Source: an uncultured delta proteobacterium
GTDB taxonomy: Bacteria; Desulfobacterota; Desulfomonilia; UBA1062
DNA length: 35,866 bases
NCBI GenBank assembly: GCA_963798485.1
Contig: CAWCTR010000013.1
Location: forward strand, 1 to 35,866
Reading direction: 5' to 3'
Shown: positions 9,840 to 25,682 of the stretch, one piece after another
How the letters are laid out: every line of letters begins with the position of its first letter
Numbering within the stretch: the stretch's first letter is position 1
Notes under the pieces: model-generated
What the model was told of the DNA's origin: nothing
The model's input: only the letters and a program-made list of their open reading frames with translations
Databases searched by the model: none
Position numbers and translations under genes: made by a program

Positions 9840-10598
9840 TTACACTGTTTCTTCCTCCTGTGTAAATAATGCCTTTTTCCTTCTCATCGAGTCTTTTCCT
9901 GTCAGGTTTATCTTGTGGGCGTTGTGCACCAGCCTGTCAAGAAGGGCATCGGCGATGGTGGGGTCTCCTACGACCTCATGCCAGTGTTCCACCGGGAGCT
10001 GGCTCGTGATGATGGTGGAGGCAACTTCGTACCGGTCATCGATCACATCCAGGAGATCTCTCCTCTCCGGATCGGTGAGAACTGCAAGGCCGAAGTCATC
10101 AAGGATGAGCACAGGCACTTTTGCCAGTCTTGATGATATACTTGCGTAGCTCCCGTCCGCTTTTGCGATGGATAACGTGTAATAGAACTTCGGGCACCTC
10201 ACGTAGAAGGCGCCGAATCCTTCCCTGCAGGCCTTGTGAGCCAGCGCACAGGCGAGGTAGGTTTTGCCCGACCCCGTCGGTCCTGTTATGATCACGTTAC
10301 GGTGCTTCCTTATCCACTCGCAGGTTCCAAGAGAGAGTATTACCGATTTGTCCAGGCCTCTCGGTGTTCGATAATCGAGGTCTTCCATTGAGGAAGATAG
10401 CTTCAGCTTGGCACTTTGAAGAAGACGCTTCATCCTCTTGTTCTCCCGGAAGAGGTATTGGGCATCCACCAGCATGGCGAAACGTTCTTCGAAGGCAAGC
10501 CCGTCGAGGTCGGCCCTTGTCATCTGGTCCTTCATTGCCTCTGCCATGCCGTTAAGCTTCATGGTGTAGAGCTTCTCATACGTCTGTTCATTGAGCAT
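9840..10598 (-). CDS. istB: IS21 helper ATPase IstB
   Basis: GPTGSGKT Walker A, LILDDFG Walker B, TIADALLDRLVH. Confidence 0.96.
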   Translation of the reverse strand: MLNEQTYEKLYTMKLNGMAEAMKDQMTRADLDGLAFEERFAMLVDAQYLFRENKRMKRLLQSAKLKLSSSMEDLDYRTPRGLDKSVILSLGTCEWIRKHRNVIITGPTGSGKTYLACALAHKACREGFGAFYVRCPKFYYTLSIAKADGSYASISSRLAKVPVLILDDFGLAVLTDPERRDLLDVIDDRYEVASTIITSQLPVEHWHEVVGDPTIADALLDRLVHNAHKINLTGKDSMRRKKALFTQEEETV

Positions 10599-12147
10599 TA
10601 TTTTCTCCTTTCACATAGTAGGATTTGCCACGGATGTTCTCGTGGGTTATGGGTGATGACGGCCTATCGGGAGGCAACTCTTTGCCGTCCAGATTGTTCT
10701 CAAGGATCGACTTGACGCTTCTATACGAATAGGCCTTCATGAGAAGAGCCCTGGTGCATGCGGCCTCAAGTCTCTTCTGTCCGTAAGGCTTTTCCAGACG
10801 GATGATGCCGAGGCATGACCTGAAGCCTTGCTCGGGGTGGGATTTGCTCTCCATTATCTCTTTCAAAAGCAATCCTGTAGAGGGTCCTGTCTTCTCCGCC
10901 CATCTGATGATACGGGAAGGAGTCCATTCGAGATAGCGCTTATGGGACTCGGGCATATGATCGGTGACGGTGGTGTGCCTGGAGGGTTCATAGCTCCTTG
11001 CATGGGAGGCCACCCTCTTGCCTTTGAAGAAGATCTCCACGGTCCTGGCCGTGATCCTCGCAGTTACCACCTGGCCTTTCAGTTGATAGGGGACGCTGTA
11101 GTAGTGGCGTCTTATTTCGACGTGGTAGTCGATGTTCACCCTAGGCTTCTCCCACTCGGCATACTCATAGCGATCCTGAGGCAGGGGTTTCATGGCAGGC
11201 CGGTCAATGGTCTCGAAAAGCTCTTTTCGTGGGACCTTCATCTTCTGCAGGGGCCGGTTGTTCAACTCTGCTACTTTATCACGGATGGCCTTGTTCAGTT
11301 CTTCGATACTGAAGAAGGTATGGTTCCTTAAGGATGCGATGATCCAGCGCTCGGCAATGAGCACGGCCGATTCAACCTTGGCTTTGTCTCTTGGTTTCGC
11401 CACCCGTGCGGGGATTATGGTCGTGCCATAGTGCGTCGCCATTTCCTGGTAGGTGGGATTGATCTCCGGTTCGTACCGGCAGGGACGGCTTACGCCGGCT
11501 TTCAGGTTATCCGGGACCGTGATCAGGGGAACCGCACCCAGGAACTGGAACGTATGTACATGCAGGCTGATCCAGGCGTAGAGGTCCTGGGAGAGCGACG
11601 CCTGTGCATACGTGTAGTTGCTGGCGCCCATGGTCGCCACAAAGAGATAGGCCGGGCTGATGGCGCCGGTCATCTCATCGTGGATGGGGATCGTATCGCC
11701 GGCAAAGTCGACAAACAGCTTTTCACCGGCTTTGTAGTCCTGTCTCAGCGAGACATCCAGGGTTTTTGCCCATTCCCGGTAGCGCTGGCAGAACTGGCTG
11801 TATTGGTAGCCTTCAGGATTGTTTTCACGATACTCATGCCAGAGCAGTTGCAGGGTGGTATGCTTTTTCTTGAGCTCCTTGTACAGATAATCGTAGGAAG
11901 GCATGTTCCTTCCCTGGACCTCAAGGGATGCGCTGCGGGGGAAGAGCAGGTTCTCAAGCGCCGTATCGTCCAGGTCATCGGACAAGGGCCAGGACAGGCC
12001 GGCCTTCCTGGCCCTGTCCAGATACTCCCTGGCCGCGGTACGGCCAATGCTACAGCTTTCAGCTGCCTGCCTGGCTGATATCCCGCCACCTAAGCACAGG
12101 CGCAGTACTTCTTTGATCTTCCGCATGGATAACCTCACATTCGCCAT
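10588..12147 (-). CDS. istA: IS21 transposase IstA
   Basis: MRKIKEVLRL HTH, VDFAG, DNLK, PRDKAKVE; overlaps istB. Confidence 0.96.
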   Translation of the reverse strand: MANVRLSMRKIKEVLRLCLGGGISARQAAESCSIGRTAAREYLDRARKAGLSWPLSDDLDDTALENLLFPRSASLEVQGRNMPSYDYLYKELKKKHTTLQLLWHEYRENNPEGYQYSQFCQRYREWAKTLDVSLRQDYKAGEKLFVDFAGDTIPIHDEMTGAISPAYLFVATMGASNYTYAQASLSQDLYAWISLHVHTFQFLGAVPLITVPDNLKAGVSRPCRYEPEINPTYQEMATHYGTTIIPARVAKPRDKAKVESAVLIAERWIIASLRNHTFFSIEELNKAIRDKVAELNNRPLQKMKVPRKELFETIDRPAMKPLPQDRYEYAEWEKPRVNIDYHVEIRRHYYSVPYQLKGQVVTARITARTVEIFFKGKRVASHARSYEPSRHTTVTDHMPESHKRYLEWTPSRIIRWAEKTGPSTGLLLKEIMESKSHPEQGFRSCLGIIRLEKPYGQKRLEAACTRALLMKAYSYRSVKSILENNLDGKELPPDRPSSPITHENIRGKSYYVKGENNAQ

Positions 12148-12825
12148 AACCACTCCCGATCGTTTTGCTCAGGGATGTAGCATGGCTGTCCCTATGATTT
12201 ATCCAGCGTTGTCTCAGGCTCCTACAGGTGGCCGCTTTCATCGGATCACTGGCCGTTTTGAATCATATTCACTGGCCGCTTTGCGTCATAATGGTGGCCG
12301 CTTTGCGTCGGAATACGCACTGGCTTTCTTTATTCGATTGAGGAGAAATTCGCAGAATTCTGCGATTTTTGTGGAGATACGAGGATACAATTGATACCTG
12401 AGAGCTTAAATAACCTGTCTATAATCATCCTGAGCAAGAGATTGTTCATGAACTCACCTCATAGATGAGGGAGAATACCCAAACCTTTTCTGCTCGAATT
12501 AGGCGATCTTTTTTCTTGTGATGTTCAATGTGATCAACATTTTTACCAAGGCGGCACAGTTCAGGGGATTGTCGGCAGACAGTAGTTACAAGCTCCAGAA
12601 GGTTGGTGGGACGATATTGGGAATAGTGAAGTAGGAAGAGACAGAGGGTCAGCTTGCACAGGGATAGTGTGGGTTGGCTCTCTGAGTAAATCATATGCAG
12701 AGACCTTGACAATGACCTCAAATTATTTACTAAGAAGACATGAATCATATGTTTATAAAACATGAATCTAATTCAATTAAACTATCTCAAAAAGTAACCA
12801 ATATAATTATGGGAGGATGATAATA

Positions 12826-16023: not shown

Positions 16024-16262
16024 ACTGCATCTGCTCGCCGTGATAGGTGGTTTGGGAGAATTCCTGGTGAAGAAGCCGGTTAATGAATGTGGTGTGAAGT
16101 CTTTGATGGCGGGTGCGGGGCGGAGATGGAGTGGACAATCTGGATTTTGAGAGGGGATTGAGATTAGGGAAGAGGGTGATCAGGTTGAGATCTGAGGTTT
16201 GGTCATTAGAGCGACGCATAAATTGAGGTGAGAGAGTACCCCAGGAGGTGTGTCCTAGTTGA

Positions 16263-16367
16263 TTACCTGTTGTGCACTATCCTGGGAGCGTGTCCTGCAT
16301 GTTTCAGGAACCTTGTAGTCAGGGCCAGGAATGCTAAGATGCCGGTTGCTATGATGATGGCTATCAT
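16263..16367 (-). CDS. 34-aa single-TM microprotein
   Basis: MIAIIIATGILAFLALTTRFLKHAGHAPRIVHNR; starts 2 nt after the upstream stop, GAGGG RBS. Confidence 0.5.
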   Translation of the reverse strand: MIAIIIATGILAFLALTTRFLKHAGHAPRIVHNR

Positions 16368-16369
16368 GG

Positions 16370-16612
16370 CTAAGCCCTCTTTATCTTTCTCTCGATCACG
16401 ACTTCATGAATGAACCCTTTGAAGCCCAGCACGATGCCAGCTACCAGTCCTATCATCGTGAAATTGGGTGCCATGCCGAGAACCCTGTCAAGGTACATGC
16501 CGCCATAGAGTCCGAGGAAGGTCATTGTAACGAGCACTAAGCTGTATGCGCTTATCCTGCTGAGTCTGTTGGTAACTTCGCGGGGTAGTTTGTCTTTCTT
16601 AGTGCGTTTCAT
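16370..16612 (-). CDS. AtpZ/AtpI (ATPase gene 1)-like 2-TM protein, 80 aa
   Basis: AGGAGAAAGG RBS; GLYGGMYLDRVLGMAPNFTMIGLVAG matches the family G..LD...P...G...G pattern. Confidence 0.75.
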   Translation of the reverse strand: MKRTKKDKLPREVTNRLSRISAYSLVLVTMTFLGLYGGMYLDRVLGMAPNFTMIGLVAGIVLGFKGFIHEVVIERKIKRA

Positions 16613-16647
16613 GGCCTTTCTCCTTTCAGGAGTTCCTATCCTTCTTC

Positions 16648-16824
16648 CTAGAACAGGTTCATGAGGATTTCGCGTGCCGGGCCGGTGTTGATGGTGACCA
16701 AAGTCACAACCAGGACGAATATTGCGGTTGCTTCTACCGGGGTGAGTCCCAATACTCTGTAGGTGAACCTGATACCAATGCCGGTCATGAACAGTGCGCC
16801 GAGTACTAACCATAATGTCATCAT
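16648..16824 (-). CDS. 58-aa 2-TM small membrane protein
   Basis: GGAGGG RBS; MMTLWLVLGALFMTGIGIRFTYRVLGLTPVEATAIFVLVVTLVTINTGPAREILMNLF; below the ORF track cutoff. Confidence 0.65.
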   Translation of the reverse strand: MMTLWLVLGALFMTGIGIRFTYRVLGLTPVEATAIFVLVVTLVTINTGPAREILMNLF

Positions 16825-16871
16825 TGTCTTTCCCTCCCTGGGGTTTGTTTTTTTCTTTCTATCTCATATAG

Positions 16872-16887
16872 AGCAAGGGGCGTGCCA
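16872..16887 (-). promoter_or_regulatory. Sigma-54 (-24/-12) promoter
   Basis: TGGCAC-GCCCC-TTGCT, perfect consensus and spacing, about 48 bp upstream of the 58-aa ORF. Confidence 0.85.
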
Positions 16888-16902
16888 TGTTTTAGCGATT
16901 TT

Positions 16903-16915
16903 TAACTTATTGATA
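16903..16915 (-). promoter_or_regulatory. IHF binding site
   Basis: TATCAA-TAAG-TTA matches WATCAANNNNTTR, just upstream of the -24 element. Confidence 0.7.
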
Positions 16916-17365
16916 ACAGACAACATTTGCCAACAGGGGTTCCCTGGCATTGCCATATTGGCAAAAAGACTGCTGCCAGGACATTAACAGGTACAATAAA
17001 TGACAAAACACCCTAAAAGGCACCATTAAATTGACAGAATGACAAAGATGGGGGGGGAATTACACTCTGGCTCCATGCAAGAAGTGATTCTATAATAGGG
17101 ATTGCTTTGGGGGGACAGTAATCAGGTCGAGATCTGGGGCGTTGTTGTGTGGGTTGTGTAAGGTGAGGTAAAAAAGAGGGTCAGCGTACTAAAACTCCGA
17201 CGGGGTTGATGTGATAAAATTGTGATAGAATCAATAGAAAAGTATGGAAGCAGATAGAATGTGTGGGAATAGGCAGAATTGATAAATCTATTGGATTTAG
17301 GTAGTTATGGGAAATCAGACCTAAGATCGAGGAGTTAGTTTTGTGTGATTTTTCATGACTTGGAA

Positions 17366-18259
17366 TTAAATAACCGATGGTATCGAGCGGTAGTGCTCCT
17401 GGCGCTGCTTTTCCGGTAAAGAGAGGAAGGCGTTGATAAGGCGTAGCATCTCTTCCCTGTTTTCATCGAGCCTGCCGAAGACCTGGATGTAGTTGTTCGC
17501 ATGATCGCAGGCGAGCACGGCAGGCGTTGGGTCAAGGGCGGCAACAAGGTCTCTCAGCTCGATAACCGCACCTTCCGGGGTCTGTTCAGTGAACTCACCG
17601 GCATGTATCTTTTCCATGAGTTTCGACATGGAGTGGATCCACAACCGTCGCACCCGGACAAAATGGGGTTTCACTTCATTGATCACAAAGGCAGAGCCCT
17701 TTACGTGGTCCTCCCAGAGTGCTTGCCCGCCCAATCCCAGAAGGAAGTAATAGGACAGCTCCATGCCCGAGGCCATTGTTTTTTTCCCGGCATCGATAAG
17801 CTGGGCCTGGCTCGTACCCTTTTTCTGGAGCTTTAGCACCGCATCCGAACCGCTCTCCATACCCACGTGGACCCGGTCAAGGCCCGCATCATGGATGGCA
17901 ATGAGCTCCTCTTGAGTCTTCTTGGCCAGGCTCGAGGCCCTGGCGTAAGCCGTAACCCGATTCACTAAAGGAAACTTCGCCCTGAGGTGTTTCAGGACTT
18001 CAACGAGAAATTCCGTGGGCAAATCGAGCGGGTTCGCATCGCCCAAAAATGCGGTCTTGAAGATGCCTCCATACATATCATGCAGGGCGTCGATATCCTT
18101 GATGACTTCATCAACAGTGCGCTCGGAGTATGGGGTGTCAAAATAATCATAGATGCCGCAGAAGAGGCACCGGTTCCAATTACACCCACGTACGATCCTG
18201 ATAAGAAGGCTCCTGGCCTCGCTCGGCGGTCTAATCACAAGATGTTCGGGGACATGCAT
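17366..18259 (-). CDS. Radical SAM protein (RPPSEA family)
   Basis: RPPSEARSLL, GCNWNRCLFC, FLGDAN, GMESGSD, DHANNY. Confidence 0.9.
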   Translation of the reverse strand: MHVPEHLVIRPPSEARSLLIRIVRGCNWNRCLFCGIYDYFDTPYSERTVDEVIKDIDALHDMYGGIFKTAFLGDANPLDLPTEFLVEVLKHLRAKFPLVNRVTAYARASSLAKKTQEELIAIHDAGLDRVHVGMESGSDAVLKLQKKGTSQAQLIDAGKKTMASGMELSYYFLLGLGGQALWEDHVKGSAFVINEVKPHFVRVRRLWIHSMSKLMEKIHAGEFTEQTPEGAVIELRDLVAALDPTPAVLACDHANNYIQVFGRLDENREEMLRLINAFLSLPEKQRQEHYRSIPSVI

Positions 18260-18469
18260 GATGATGTTATAGGGCGAGGAAGCCCCTGGGTCAAGGATTT
18301 GAGAGCGGCAAGCTATAAACCCTAAGCGGAATCATCACCTGTGGTGAAGCTAATGGTGTAATCCGAACCGAGGGTACTCCCATCGGAGTCCTTCACTTGG
18401 GATTTTTTAAATTAAATTCATAAAAAATGCATGGTGAATTTCTATCCGAATATGAGTTACAAGATACCC

Positions 18470-18883
18470 ATGGAAATCTTATACACTGCAATCGGCCTCA
18501 TGCACTGTGAGCTCTATGACTCGGACACAGCGCCCAAGTTTTATACCGAATCCACCATCAAAGGGACCATCGAGATCTTCGAGGCGTATGGGGAAGGACT
18601 TGCCGGGCTTAATGAATACGACCATATCATGGTCTTCTTCCACTTCCACCGCTCTGCGGGCTACAGCCTTATGCAGAAGCGGCGGGGCGTGGGGGAGTTG
18701 CGCGGTGTGTTCAGCCTGTGCTCGCCGAACCGGCCCAATGGCATCGGTATGTCGATCCTTAAGCTAATAAAAATAGAGGGGAACATACTCCATGTGGAGA
18801 ACGTAGATCTGCTTGATGGCACACCCATCCTCGATATAAAACCTTACAAACCGCAGGATTACCCGAGCGGTACAAAGGACTGA
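18470..18883 (+). CDS. tsaA: tRNA (t6A37-N6)-methyltransferase TrmO/TsaA
   Basis: GL.GL.EYDHI...FHFH, RGVFSLCSPNRPNGIG, DLLDGTPILDIKPY; start could be 18431. Confidence 0.88.
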   Translation: MEILYTAIGLMHCELYDSDTAPKFYTESTIKGTIEIFEAYGEGLAGLNEYDHIMVFFHFHRSAGYSLMQKRRGVGELRGVFSLCSPNRPNGIGMSILKLIKIEGNILHVENVDLLDGTPILDIKPYKPQDYPSGTKD

Positions 18884-18997: not shown

Positions 18998-19876
18998 ATG
19001 GAATACGATATGCCGCTCTACAGGCCGCCTTCAGAGGCGCGCTCTCTCATCTTCCAGGTGACATTAGGCTGTTCGTGGAACAAATGTATGTTCTGCGCCA
19101 TGTACAAGACCAAAAATTTCCTTGTAAGGCCGTTACCCGAGATCGAGAAGGATGTCCTGGAGATGGCGAGGCTCTACCCGCAGACACGCAAGATCTTCCT
19201 AGCCGACGGCGATCCCTTGGCTGCGCCAAGCGAGTTCCTTATCAGGGTCCTCGACCTCATGAACCAGCGGTTCCCCAAACTTGAGCGCATCAGCACCTAT
19301 GCCGGCCCCACCAATCTTAAGGACAAGTCAAAAGAAGAACTCAGGGAGTTCAAGGCACGTAAGCTCGATGTCCTCTACCTTGGCATCGAGACCGGGAATG
19401 ACCCCCTCCTGAAAAGGATCAAGAAGGGGGCAAAGGCCTCCCAGATCATAGACGTCTGCAGGAAGGCAAAAGATGCCGGCCTGCGCATGTCCACCTTCAT
19501 CATCCTGGGTCTGGGCGGCCTTGAGGGCAGTTATGACCACGCCAAGGATTCGGCCCGGGTGGCAAATGCCATCGACCCGGACTTCCTGGCAACGCTGACC
19601 CTCATGCTGGGACCCTATGAGAAACTCTACGAACAGGAGATCATGGGCGGCGGGTTCAAGCTCATCGACAAGAAGCAGTCCCTGCAGGAGCTCAGGTGGT
19701 TCGTAGAGGACCTTGATCTCACCGACTGCAAGTTCGGCTCTGAGCACGCATCCAACTACCTGCCCATCAGCGGGACCCTGCCCCGGGACAAACAGGAGAT
19801 CCTCGCTCTCATCGACAAGGCCCTTGCCGATAGCTCCTCAAAGATGATCAGGCCCGAGTGGGCCCGGGGGCTGTGA
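18998..19876 (+). CDS. Radical SAM protein (RPPSEA family), paralog of 17366-18259
   Basis: YRPPSEARSLI, GCSWNKCMFC, FLADGD, GIETGND, HASNY, RPEWARGL; AAGGAG RBS. Confidence 0.92.
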   Translation: MEYDMPLYRPPSEARSLIFQVTLGCSWNKCMFCAMYKTKNFLVRPLPEIEKDVLEMARLYPQTRKIFLADGDPLAAPSEFLIRVLDLMNQRFPKLERISTYAGPTNLKDKSKEELREFKARKLDVLYLGIETGNDPLLKRIKKGAKASQIIDVCRKAKDAGLRMSTFIILGLGGLEGSYDHAKDSARVANAIDPDFLATLTLMLGPYEKLYEQEIMGGGFKLIDKKQSLQELRWFVEDLDLTDCKFGSEHASNYLPISGTLPRDKQEILALIDKALADSSSKMIRPEWARGL

Positions 19877-23768: not shown

Positions 23769-25682
23769 ATGGCCAGATGGGACCCGGAAAAGAGGGTTTA
23801 TTATTACACCCCTGGTAAAAACTTTGAATCAGGCATCCAGGAGATCGAGCGCGGCAACTACTACCGCTCCATCTTCAATTATGACGAAATTCCGAAAATT
23901 GACTTTGATATGAGGCTGGTTCCCATCCAGCCGGCAGAAGACATCTTCATCACCGACACCACCTTCAGGGACGGGCAGCAGTCCATGACGCCTTTTTCCG
24001 TGGAGCAGATCGAGCGCATCTTTGATTTCCTGCACCGCATCGGCGGGGATTCCGGACTCATCAGGGGCAGCGAGTTCTTCCTCTACTCAAAAAAGGACAA
24101 GGCCGCCTGTGAGGCCTGCCTTGCCAAGGGGTATAATTTTCCAAGGGTGACCTCATGGATCCGCGCCCACAAAGACGACCTTAAGCTCGTGCACGAATTC
24201 GGTCTGAATGAAACCGGCATCCTCACCTCGGTTTCCGATTACCACATCTATCTCAAGCTCGGGTGGTCGCGCCGAAAGGCGCTGAACGACTACCTCGCCA
24301 TCGTCAAGGAGGCATTGAGCCGGGGTATCATCCCGAGGTGCCATTTTGAAGATGTGACCAGGGCCGATATATACGGGTTCTGTATCCCCTTTGCCCGCGA
24401 GCTCATGAGGCTCAGGGAAGAATCAGGGATCGACGTGAAGATAAGGCTCTGTGACACCATGGGTTATGGTGTTTCCTTTCCCGGGGCGGCGCTACCCAGG
24501 GCCGTGGACAAACTGGTTCGCGCCTTCATCGACGACGCGGGCGTGCCCGGGCACCTGCTGGAGTGGCACGGGCATAATGACTTCCATAAGGTGGTGGCAA
24601 ACGCGACTACGGCCTGGCTCTATGGGTGCGGTTCGGTCAACTGCGCCATCTTGGGGTTCGGCGAGCGCACGGGCAACACCCCCATCGAGGCCATGGTCTT
24701 TGAGTACCTTTCATTACGGGGTCACGACAAGAGTATAGACACCAGGGCCATCACCGAACTCGCCGAGTATGTGAGCTCGGAGATCAATTACCATATCCCG
24801 GGCAACTACCCCTTTGTGGGCAAGAACTTCAACGTGACCAGGGCGGGCATCCATGCGGACGGCCTGGTGAAGAACGAGGAGATCTACAACATCTTCAACA
24901 CGGACAAGTTCCTGAACCGGCCCATCGGGATCGCCATCACCGACAAGTCCGGCAAGGCGGGCATCGCACACTGGGTCAATTCCAATTTCAAGCTTGAGGA
25001 TTCCAACAAGATCGACAAGCGCCATCCCGGCATTACCCGTATGTACCAGCAGATCGCCAAGGAATTCGAAGACGGCCGCAACACCTCCATGACGGACGAG
25101 GAGTTGGAGAAGCTCACCATGCGTTTCATCCCCCACCTCTTCCTGTCGGGCTTCGACCTCATCAAGTATGAGGCCCAGGAGTATGCCAGCCAGCTCATCG
25201 AGAAGCTCCTGGAAAACGAAGACATGAAGAGCATGAAGCCCAAGAAGCAGGAGCCGGTCATCACCGAATTCATCAAGGAATATCCCTTTGTGCAGTTTGC
25301 CTATGTCACGGACATGAACGGCATCAAGATAACCAAGAATATCACCCAGCCCGAGTATCGCGGACAGTTCATGAACAAGATGAAGGAAGATGAAGACTGC
25401 TCGGATCGGGAATGGTTCATCAGGACCGTGGAGACGGGCAGGCTCCATGTGACCTCCGTGAACACATCCCGCATCACCGGGGCCTTGATTTTAACGGTCT
25501 CCGCGCCTGTTTTGAATGACAAGGAAGACATGGTGGGGGTCTTGGGTCTGGACATCAGGTTCGAGGACGTGGTCAAGGCCATTCAGAGCATGTACGAGGC
25601 CAGGGGGACGAGCATGAGCCCCAAAGACCTTCAGCACTATCAGCGGCTGCTCTGGGAGGAGTTGCACAGAAACTCGTTCTAA
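23769..25682 (+). CDS. DRE-TIM metallolyase, probable Re-citrate synthase, with C-terminal Cache-like domain
   Basis: [32 protein letters not shown]; C-terminal SDREWF...SRITG...TVSAP...GVLGLD; adjacent to icd. Confidence 0.78.

Follow-up and report, generated by a model that had tools for sequence, protein, structure and literature searches.

Orphan AtpZ-like genes in multi-copy sigma-54-type cassettes with a membrane microprotein resembling the ATP synthase c subunit in an uncultured Desulfomonilia bacterium

The pspG gene of Escherichia coli and Yersinia reportedly stands as an orphan, encodes a small inner-membrane protein and is driven from a sigma-54 promoter that has an IHF site and upstream activator sites, and the Qrr small-RNA genes of Vibrio are said to occur as several near-identical copies with their own sigma-54 promoters and a 13-bp dyad of 5-3-5 layout, fired by one activator, LuxO. 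Proteins of the AtpZ/AtpQ family (PF09527) are widespread, and their function is unsettled. According to the part of PMC2881411 that deals with them, PF09527 genes normally stand at the head of atp operons. AtpZ of Bacillus pseudofirmus OF4 has been proposed as a divalent-cation (Mg2+/Ca2+) channel, and the only experimental link of the family given in the relevant sections of PMC4453477 and PMC3543383, which cite Hicks et al. 2003, is Mg2+ acquisition. Here, a PF09527 gene is described from a cassette at positions 16263-17044 (minus strand) of a contig of 35,866 nucleotides (nt) from an uncultured delta proteobacterium (CAWCTR010000013.1, assembly GCA_963798485.1; "the window" hereafter means this whole stretch), which combines a sigma-54-type promoter, an IHF-like site and three enhancer-like dyads with three open reading frames (ORFs). 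No description of such a cassette, its enhancer or its shortened c-like partner was found in the literature, supplements not being covered.

Read 5' to 3' on the minus strand, the cassette consists of three dyads, the IHF-like site, the promoter, an A-rich leader, ORF1, ORF2 and ORF3, as listed below with dyad positions counted from the T of TGGCAC and protein lengths in amino acids (aa).

17032-17044, minus strand: distal dyad (UAS3), TGTCATTCTGTCA, at about -157
16991-17005, minus strand: middle dyad (UAS2), TGTCA-TTTAT-TGTAC, degenerate, with a spacer here of 5 nt, not 3
16951-16963, minus strand: proximal dyad (UAS1), TGCCAATATGGCA, at -76
16903-16915, minus strand: IHF-like site, TATCAATAAGTTA, between enhancer and promoter, fitting the IHF consensus WATCAANNNNTTR
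16872-16887, minus strand: sigma-54 -24/-12 promoter, TGGCACGCCCCTTGCT, the sole exact match to TGGCAC-N5-TTGCW in the window
16648-16824, minus strand: ORF1, 58 aa, a two-helix membrane hairpin, c-subunit-like, with R19 and E31 invariant; the constant gene of the cassette
16370-16612, minus strand: ORF2, 80 aa, a two-helix protein of the AtpZ/AtpQ family (PF09527) with basic termini and D42 invariant
16263-16367, minus strand: ORF3, 34 aa, a single-pass peptide with a basic tail

A sequence-only reading of this DNA had proposed a hidden operon of three ORFs (58, 80 and 34 aa) equipped with ribosome-binding sites, behind a perfect -24/-12 promoter, an IHF consensus and TGCCA/TGACA-rich enhancer candidates that include the palindrome TTGCCAATATGGCAA at 16950-16964. 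All its coordinates hold, a GGAGG-like Shine-Dalgarno-type site lies 8-9 nt 5' of each of the three ATG codons, and the promoter, the IHF-like site and the dyads recur in related cassettes with the frequencies given below. The same reading held that one ORF is mis-started in the ORF list, and this also proved right: ORF calling from the first start yields 147 aa (16370-16813), overlapping ORF1 in another frame, while the counterpart of ORF2 is 79-80 aa long in the other three cassettes of this genome, so that 16612 is the real start of ORF2 and the 147-aa form a false one. The epithet "hidden" is apt only in part: ORF1 homologues are called, as hypothetical proteins, in public records. Only 2 nt separate the stop of ORF2 from the ATG of ORF3. 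No intrinsic terminator was found 3' of ORF3 in the window; the copy on contig C30 is followed by a G+C-rich hairpin and then a T run.

A profile search for PF09527 across the genome (the assembly has 4.3 Mb in 32 contigs and is 97.5% complete, with the window as contig C13) gave eight matches. The 58/80/34 cassette accounts for four of them, on C13, C25, C4 and C30, and a second, two-gene cassette (ORFa, 91-93 aa, with an 87-aa AtpZ-like protein) for two; the others are the atpZ of an F-type operon atpZ-atpI-atpB (C7) and the atpQ of an N-ATPase operon atpD-C-Q-R-B-E (C21). Among 151 sampled genomes of the phylum, one or two matches are the rule, compared with eight here and five in each of two relatives. 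When the four cassettes are aligned as DNA, homology extends from the distal dyad to the stop of ORF3, and the flanks are unrelated. Within the same family (uncultured Desulfomonilia), 33 of 36 genomes gave ORF1 matches, 1-7 apiece, and the 24 genomes examined from the sister family gave none; completeness of the three ORF1-negative members of the own family is 78, 77 and 96%. Among 5.8 billion proteins, ORF1 homologues form 226 clusters, of which the named ones are all "hypothetical protein" and none carries a Pfam family, and the ORF1 profile run against 1.84 billion representatives gave 17 matches at an expectation value (E) <=0.001, two of them weak and in very long proteins. From the few profile matches and the family-bound distribution, it follows that ORF1 is a lineage-restricted gene.

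For comparison of cassettes, those of the own genome were combined with 67 public-genome loci, less L064, L066 and L092, in which the motif-based finder saw no complete ORF1, giving 70 cassettes. Because the loci were sought with ORF1, its constancy is built into the resulting counts, which are as follows.

ORF1-2-3: 42 of 70 (41 uncut, 1 cut by a contig end)
ORF1-3: 11 of 70 (10 uncut, 1 cut by a contig end)
ORF1-2: 9 of 70 (6 uncut, 3 cut by a contig end)
ORF1 alone: 8 of 70 (5 uncut, 3 cut by a contig end)

ORF2 and ORF3 are thus each dispensable among cassettes; ORF3 was detected in 51 of the 62 uncut ones, some of the matches to its hidden Markov model (HMM) being weak. At one locus of a relative (L054), two ORF1 genes stand in tandem (1722, 1916) behind a single sigma-54 promoter, without ORF2 or ORF3. 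The median pairwise ratio of non-synonymous to synonymous substitution rates (dN/dS) is 0.19 for ORF1 (n=68), 0.23 for ORF2 (n=51) and 0.42 for ORF3 (n=44), and variability by codon position ranks 3>1>2 in each of the three. The low ratios and this pattern together indicate that all three ORFs are coding sequences under purifying selection.

Taken singly, the promoter would count for little: if one mismatch to TGGCAC-N5-TTGCW is allowed, the window holds two matches for 1.31 expected, which is not significant. Its weight comes instead from conservation across cassettes, the -24/-12 element being kept in 58 of 70, at 53-64 nt 5' of the ORF1 ATG. Among the 12 cassettes that lack the standard element, two reach too short a way upstream and another is the second member of a tandem pair; eight others carry TGGCAC-N5-TTGA, TTGAA or TTGTT together with dyads (three dyads in seven of them, two in L065), and the last has neither a promoter variant nor dyads. 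The -12 variants of the TTGA/TTGT type mark a divergent ORF1 subgroup (L053, L055, L056, L057, L065, L073, L084 and L086). In the 56 cassettes that could be anchored on the -24 element, which serve for all dyad and IHF counts, the promoter, aTCAAtnaGTTAtaa (offset -28) and the dyads stand out by a high information content, which is near zero between them. All eight fixed bases of TGNCA-N3-TGNCA are present at UAS1 in 52 of these cassettes (seven of eight in the other 4) and at UAS3 in 54, at -156 to -162; UAS2 mostly reads TGNCA-N3-TGTAC outside the window and keeps 6/8 fixed bases in 39. Successive dyads are spaced about 41 bp apart. The variable central bases of UAS1 are complementary in 35/56 cassettes (for example TGCCA..TGGCA, TGACA..TGTCA and TGTCA..TGACA), against a shuffle mean of 23.0 and with none of 2000 shuffles reaching 35; as the sequences are related, this figure yields no probability, and a paired arrangement of the dyad centre is only suggested by it. 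The IHF-like site matches WATCAANNNNTTR with <=1 mismatch in 42/56 cassettes, compared with 0/56 in a control window, and sits at offset -28 in 48/56.

The own genome holds 15 strict dyads where 16.4 would be expected, yet six of them fall inside the four cassette promoters, about 1 kb in total. Dyads at -157/-117/-76 were found only at the four cassettes, whether the search took in the 56 sites of the strict sigma-54 pattern or a broader set with a relaxed -24/-12 element and dyad. The genome has one rpoN and, among genes for sigma-54 activators (PF00158), 21 full-length ones (E<=1e-60) and about two split ones. No PF00158 gene lies beside the cassettes of this genome, and none is among the recurrent neighbours of the loci in relatives.

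Neither ORF1 nor ORF3 gave a Pfam family at E<=1, and the clusters nearest to ORF1 in a protein atlas are unnamed hypothetical proteins, with recognition below the usual mark. Across 68 sequences, 14 residues are invariant (M1, W5, G9, F12, G15, G17, R19, F20, T21, G26, E31, A32, N46 and P49), and an AlphaFold2 model built on the family alignment gives a helical hairpin (H2-25/H29-57) at a predicted local distance difference test (pLDDT) score of 87.5. Foldseek of this model against PDB returned no match at E<=0.001, the best being helices of the NaK channel at E of about 4, which is uninformative for a 58-residue hairpin. The sole NCBIfam match is "F0F1 ATP synthase subunit C" (PRK13468), at E 0.036 and 14.4 bits for a cut-off of 116. 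A search with the ORF1 HMM through all 53,630 six-frame segments of the own genome (40 aa or longer) placed the ORF1 copies at ranks 1-4, ORFa copies at 5-6 and three of the four c subunits at 7-9 (E 0.045, 0.16 and 0.18), with the N-type c subunit at rank 19. In the opposite direction, the c-subunit HMM placed the four c genes first, the ORF1 of the window fifth (E 0.086) and then two ORFa copies; ranks 10, 11 and 13 went to the three remaining copies of ORF1. ORF1 and the c subunits are therefore mutual best non-self matches genome-wide, and such reciprocal ranking among tens of thousands of segments makes chance unlikely. The profile alignment by hhalign (probability 40.6%, E 2.9e-4) sets ORF1 residues 24-54 on c helix 2 and the invariant E31 on the ion-binding Glu. 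In the AlphaFold2 hairpin, this residue would be a carboxylate of helix 2 in the place of the c-subunit Glu. The hhalign controls (an AtpZ-like alignment, AtpI and AtpR) all remained under 1% probability. Similarity of ORF1 to AtpI (PF03899) or AtpR (TIGR03165) was rejected on probabilities of 0.4% and 0.8%, and similarity to the AtpZ-like proteins on one below 1%.

ORF2 scores 41.4 bits on Pfam PF09527, above the gathering cut-off of 26.6. Its hydropathic stretches (20-39 and 44-68) fit the family layout of two hydrophobic helices, about 50 residues, with a short outer loop, and D42, P49, N50 and F51 are the invariant residues of the loop region; identity is 35% to the F-type AtpZ and 30% to the AtpQ of the same genome. 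To look for atp genes near the cassettes, the own AtpB (F and N), AtpE, AtpI, AtpR and AtpC were searched by tblastn against 68 cassette flanks (467 kb) and gave nothing, and AtpD gave one beta-like match, in L072. Genomic context is not part of the Pfam definition, and the membership of ORF2 therefore stands without it. AtpR, the marker of N-ATPases, was found in 25 of the 36 genomes of the family. A complex prediction of ORF2 with ORF1 scored 0.00 in two runs, for which controls were not folded, and says nothing about binding.

The second type of cassette extends the association. Compared with the whole of ORF1 by hhalign (probability 77%, E 2e-5), ORFa has an ORF1-related hairpin with an added signal-peptide-like N-terminus. 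Its copies in this genome are given here.

C4:153971-154258: ORFa, followed 3' by an 87-aa AtpZ-like gene
C7:343925-344212: ORFa, followed 3' by an 87-aa AtpZ-like gene
C10:92340-92669: ORFa without an AtpZ partner
C25:25370-25561: C-terminal fragment of ORFa

Upstream of the C4 and C7 copies lies TGGCAC-N5-ATGC or TGGCAT-N5-GTGC, and the C4 copy stands tail to tail with the ORF1 cassette of that contig. Two further families of the phylum have pairs of ORFa-like and AtpZ-like genes as well, in one case (L104) with a TGGCAC-N5-ACGC site. Moreover, two of the four PF00137 (c-subunit) genes of the genome are orphans with signal-peptide-like N-termini, as follows.

C4:359253-359642 (L129): orphan c-subunit gene, followed by a gene for a 429-aa membrane protein, with a sigma-54 site (C4:359705-359720) about 80 nt upstream
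C32:11309-11698: orphan c-subunit gene

Genomes of the genus have 4-6 PF00137 matches (1 in one 71%-complete genome), compared with 1-2 in the sister family.

The sequence elements and the degree to which they are conserved, the purifying selection, the number of copies and the PF09527 membership of ORF2 are observations, and a dedicated, all-or-none sigma-54 regulon of multi-copy operons is the best-supported account of them. In its full form, this account takes the four paralogous, self-contained sigma-54 operons to be the whole detectable regulon of one activator and lets the Fo-derived pair act on the H+/Na+ conductance of the membrane, a reading that we consider about evenly poised between right and wrong. 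One unlinked NtrC-type activator would bind the three 13-bp dyads (TGNCA-N3-TGNCA), which the spacing of about 41 bp would put on one face of the helix; IHF would bend the DNA, and sigma-54 polymerase at TGGCAC-N5-TTGC would start a short tricistronic mRNA near 16861, a position inferred from the rule that the C of GC is -12. With one enhancer common to all copies, it is proposed that they fire together and at high dose. ORF1 would be a c-like hairpin minus the cytoplasmic loop half, with the Glu kept at the position of the ion-binding carboxylate, and translation of ORF3 would be coupled to that of ORF2. ORF1 might either form a small proteolipid oligomer of its own, or dock on or enter an F- or N-type Fo sector, and ORF2 might serve as its insertion or assembly partner. 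Since both recognisable products come from Fo-sector gene families, H+/Na+ conductance or Fo itself appears the likeliest field of action. More specifically, ORF1 and ORFa may be thought of as "mini-c" proteins, rotor subunits without the cytoplasmic half that couples to F1, which would be made in many copies with their AtpZ-like partner upon a sigma-54 signal, enter or dock at the interface of c-ring and a subunit of an F- or N-type enzyme (or form a separate ring), and so put a switch or a brake on ion flow, or uncouple it, in an anaerobe short of energy; this sharper version is speculative, and we regard it as doubtful.

Several points weigh against the full account. The likeness to c subunits is weak score by score (E 0.045-0.18 genome-wide; 40.6% in hhalign) and lies mainly over helix 2, about 30 residues; PF00137 itself gives no match to ORF1 at E<=1, and neither the R-N/Q-P loop nor the greater part of the GxGxGxG motif is present in ORF1. 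Part of the likeness could also stem from hydrophobic composition, though the scores of three other small membrane proteins were far lower. Compared with a mature c subunit, ORF1 is short of about 30 residues, has G26-L-T-P29 as its loop and keeps only G15-x-G17 as a remnant of the glycine motif; given its length and the missing loop and glycine motif, it is not a member of PF00137 and may at most be a c-subunit derivative. ORF2, the other half of the supposed pair, is missing from 15/62 uncut cassettes. As no activator gene adjoins any cassette, the switch is deduced from DNA motifs, and transcription, its start, translation, assembly and function of the cassettes are likewise inferred. Finally, five near-complete ORF1-positive genomes (G019, G020, G022, G027 and G035) have no AtpR match, so any target is not the N-ATPase alone. 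Dependence of the cassette on the N-ATPase was rejected on these same genomes.

The sequence-only reading had seen in the locus an operon of three membrane proteins, equipped with a sigma-54-type promoter and enhancer and including an orphan PF09527 gene. This core stands, and the operon is conserved: the ORF2 score is the outcome of the ATPase_gene1 model search that it had proposed, and the absence of atp genes that it had noted in the window extends to every Fo gene searched for in the 68 flanks. It had missed the multi-copy nature of the unit (four cassettes here, as many as seven in relatives), the constancy of ORF1 rather than of the AtpZ-like gene, and the c-subunit likeness. New here is the resemblance of ORF1, the constant gene, to a c subunit. 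The suggestion that the module modulates ATP synthase assembly or ion flux gains weight from that resemblance, and stays conjectural.

The surroundings of the cassettes bear on mobility. A 19-nt direct repeat (17118-17136 and 16176-16194, minus strand, 17/19 identical) brackets the window cassette, its two units 942 nt apart. Of four genome-wide matches at <=3 mismatches, only the bracketing two differ mutually by 2, the other two being at 3, and flanking repeats occur at only 5/54 cassettes; the repeat is a local oddity, peculiar to the window copy. About 4 kb downstream of the cassette lies an IS21-type element (an IstB-like ATPase and a transposase of the Mu-transposase/rve type; window 9840-12153, minus strand), and a truncated IstB-like ORF adjoins the C25 cassette. 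The neighbours that recur at the 68 loci (ResIII helicase 14, glyoxalase 8, AsmA 8, PAS/GAF hybrid kinase 7, and others) are varied housekeeping genes and give no functional clue. The PAS/GAF hybrid histidine kinase, of about 813 aa, stands beside cassettes in 7/68 loci (L067, L081, L090, L030, L069, L072 and L080), in three of them directly downstream on the same strand; in three genomes, no activator gene was found on the contig of the kinase. Elsewhere in the window, 23769-25682 encodes a 637-aa protein with an unusual pairing of an HMGL-like part (isopropylmalate/homocitrate synthase type) and a Cache/PDC sensor-like domain at the C-terminus, its neighbour being an isocitrate/isopropylmalate dehydrogenase gene, and two similar radical-SAM proteins of 292-297 aa (17366-18259, minus strand, and 18998-19876, plus strand) diverge around a TrmO-like gene (18431-18883).

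The regulatory anatomy, reportedly the same as that of pspG, would also suit a general membrane-stress effector set analogous to pspG or the psp operon, in which small inner-membrane proteins are made in bulk upon damage to the membrane or the proton-motive force and have no specific link to ATP synthase. The number of copies per genome points to a stoichiometric role and not to a catalytic one, and PspA/IM30 (PF04012) was not found in the 97.5%-complete genome, which leaves room for another system. However, PF09527 is the sole family matched by the three ORFs at E<=1, so that no Psp family is among them, and both the reciprocal c-subunit likeness and the pairing with an ATP-synthase accessory family are left unexplained; we judge this explanation unlikely. 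The invariant acidic D42 in the outer loop of ORF2, together with its membership of the family linked to Mg2+, would fit an inducible divalent-cation (Mg2+/Ca2+) uptake channel in which the AtpZ-like protein conducts and ORF1 and ORF3 are accessory. Yet the constant gene is ORF1 and not ORF2 (11/70 cassettes have ORF1 with ORF3 and 8/70 ORF1 alone), no transport-related neighbour recurs, and the Mg2+ role of AtpZ is itself indirect, which together make such a channel quite improbable.

Copy number and varied contexts, the IS21 genes nearby, the truncated IstB-like ORF at the C25 copy and the 19-nt repeat round the window copy might be taken as traces of a semi-mobile cassette of small hydrophobic toxin-like or lysis peptides, kept silent by a tight sigma-54 promoter. 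Long-term purifying selection and near-universal presence across a bacterial family speak against this, as do the rarity of flanking repeats and the fact that no antitoxin-like partner or antisense feature was seen, and we give it very little credence. As PF09527 genes are described in PMC2881411 as normally leading atp operons, the locus could in principle be a decayed remnant of one, or its ORFs could be untranslated, and the sequence-only reading had itself raised a lack of conservation or such a remnant as ways in which it might be wrong. The ORFs are in fact conserved, all three are under purifying selection, intact F-type and N-type operons are present elsewhere in the genome, and no Fo gene was found in the 68 flanks, where the one atp-type match is the beta-like one in L072; the locus is not a decayed atp operon, and this explanation, already contradicted, is scarcely credible.

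Should the mini-c proposal be true, it would mean a signal-controlled remodelling of a rotary ATPase at the protein level by truncated rotor subunits. Even the broader c-like reading, if true, would imply that membrane ion flow or ATP synthase is regulated by truncated subunits in Desulfomonilia known only from metagenome-assembled genomes. PF09527 proteins occur here away from ATPase operons, in six orphan copies that always stand beside a partner resembling a cut-down rotor subunit, and apparently under one of the tightest bacterial switches known, so that an AtpZ-like protein and a c-like hairpin form a concrete, testable pairing. The common enhancer of the four cassettes, detectable nowhere else in this genome, offers a compact regulon from which the activator and its signal may be traced. 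The locus further illustrates how gene calling hides or mis-starts conserved microprotein genes, ORF1 having been swallowed by a false ORF of 147 aa.

Set beside the systems named at the outset, the cassettes share with pspG the reported anatomy of the promoter, but they have no sequence relation to it, comprise three genes, are multi-copy, use a different dyad and occur in a genome without PspA. With the Qrr genes under LuxO, they share the reported layout of copies and dyads, whereas Qrr genes yield non-coding RNAs and the cassettes are protein-coding operons with another dyad sequence. ORF1 has in common with the F/N-type c subunit (PF00137) the helical hairpin and the Glu of helix 2, but its scores stay under all curated thresholds, and it is never part of an atp operon. 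ORF2 shares its two-helix core with AtpZ of Bacillus pseudofirmus OF4 and with AtpQ, the "gene 1" products of N-ATPase operons, and passes their family model; unlike them, it stands outside an atp operon, with a c-like microprotein gene 5', a gene for a 34-aa peptide 3' and a promoter of the sigma-54/enhancer type.

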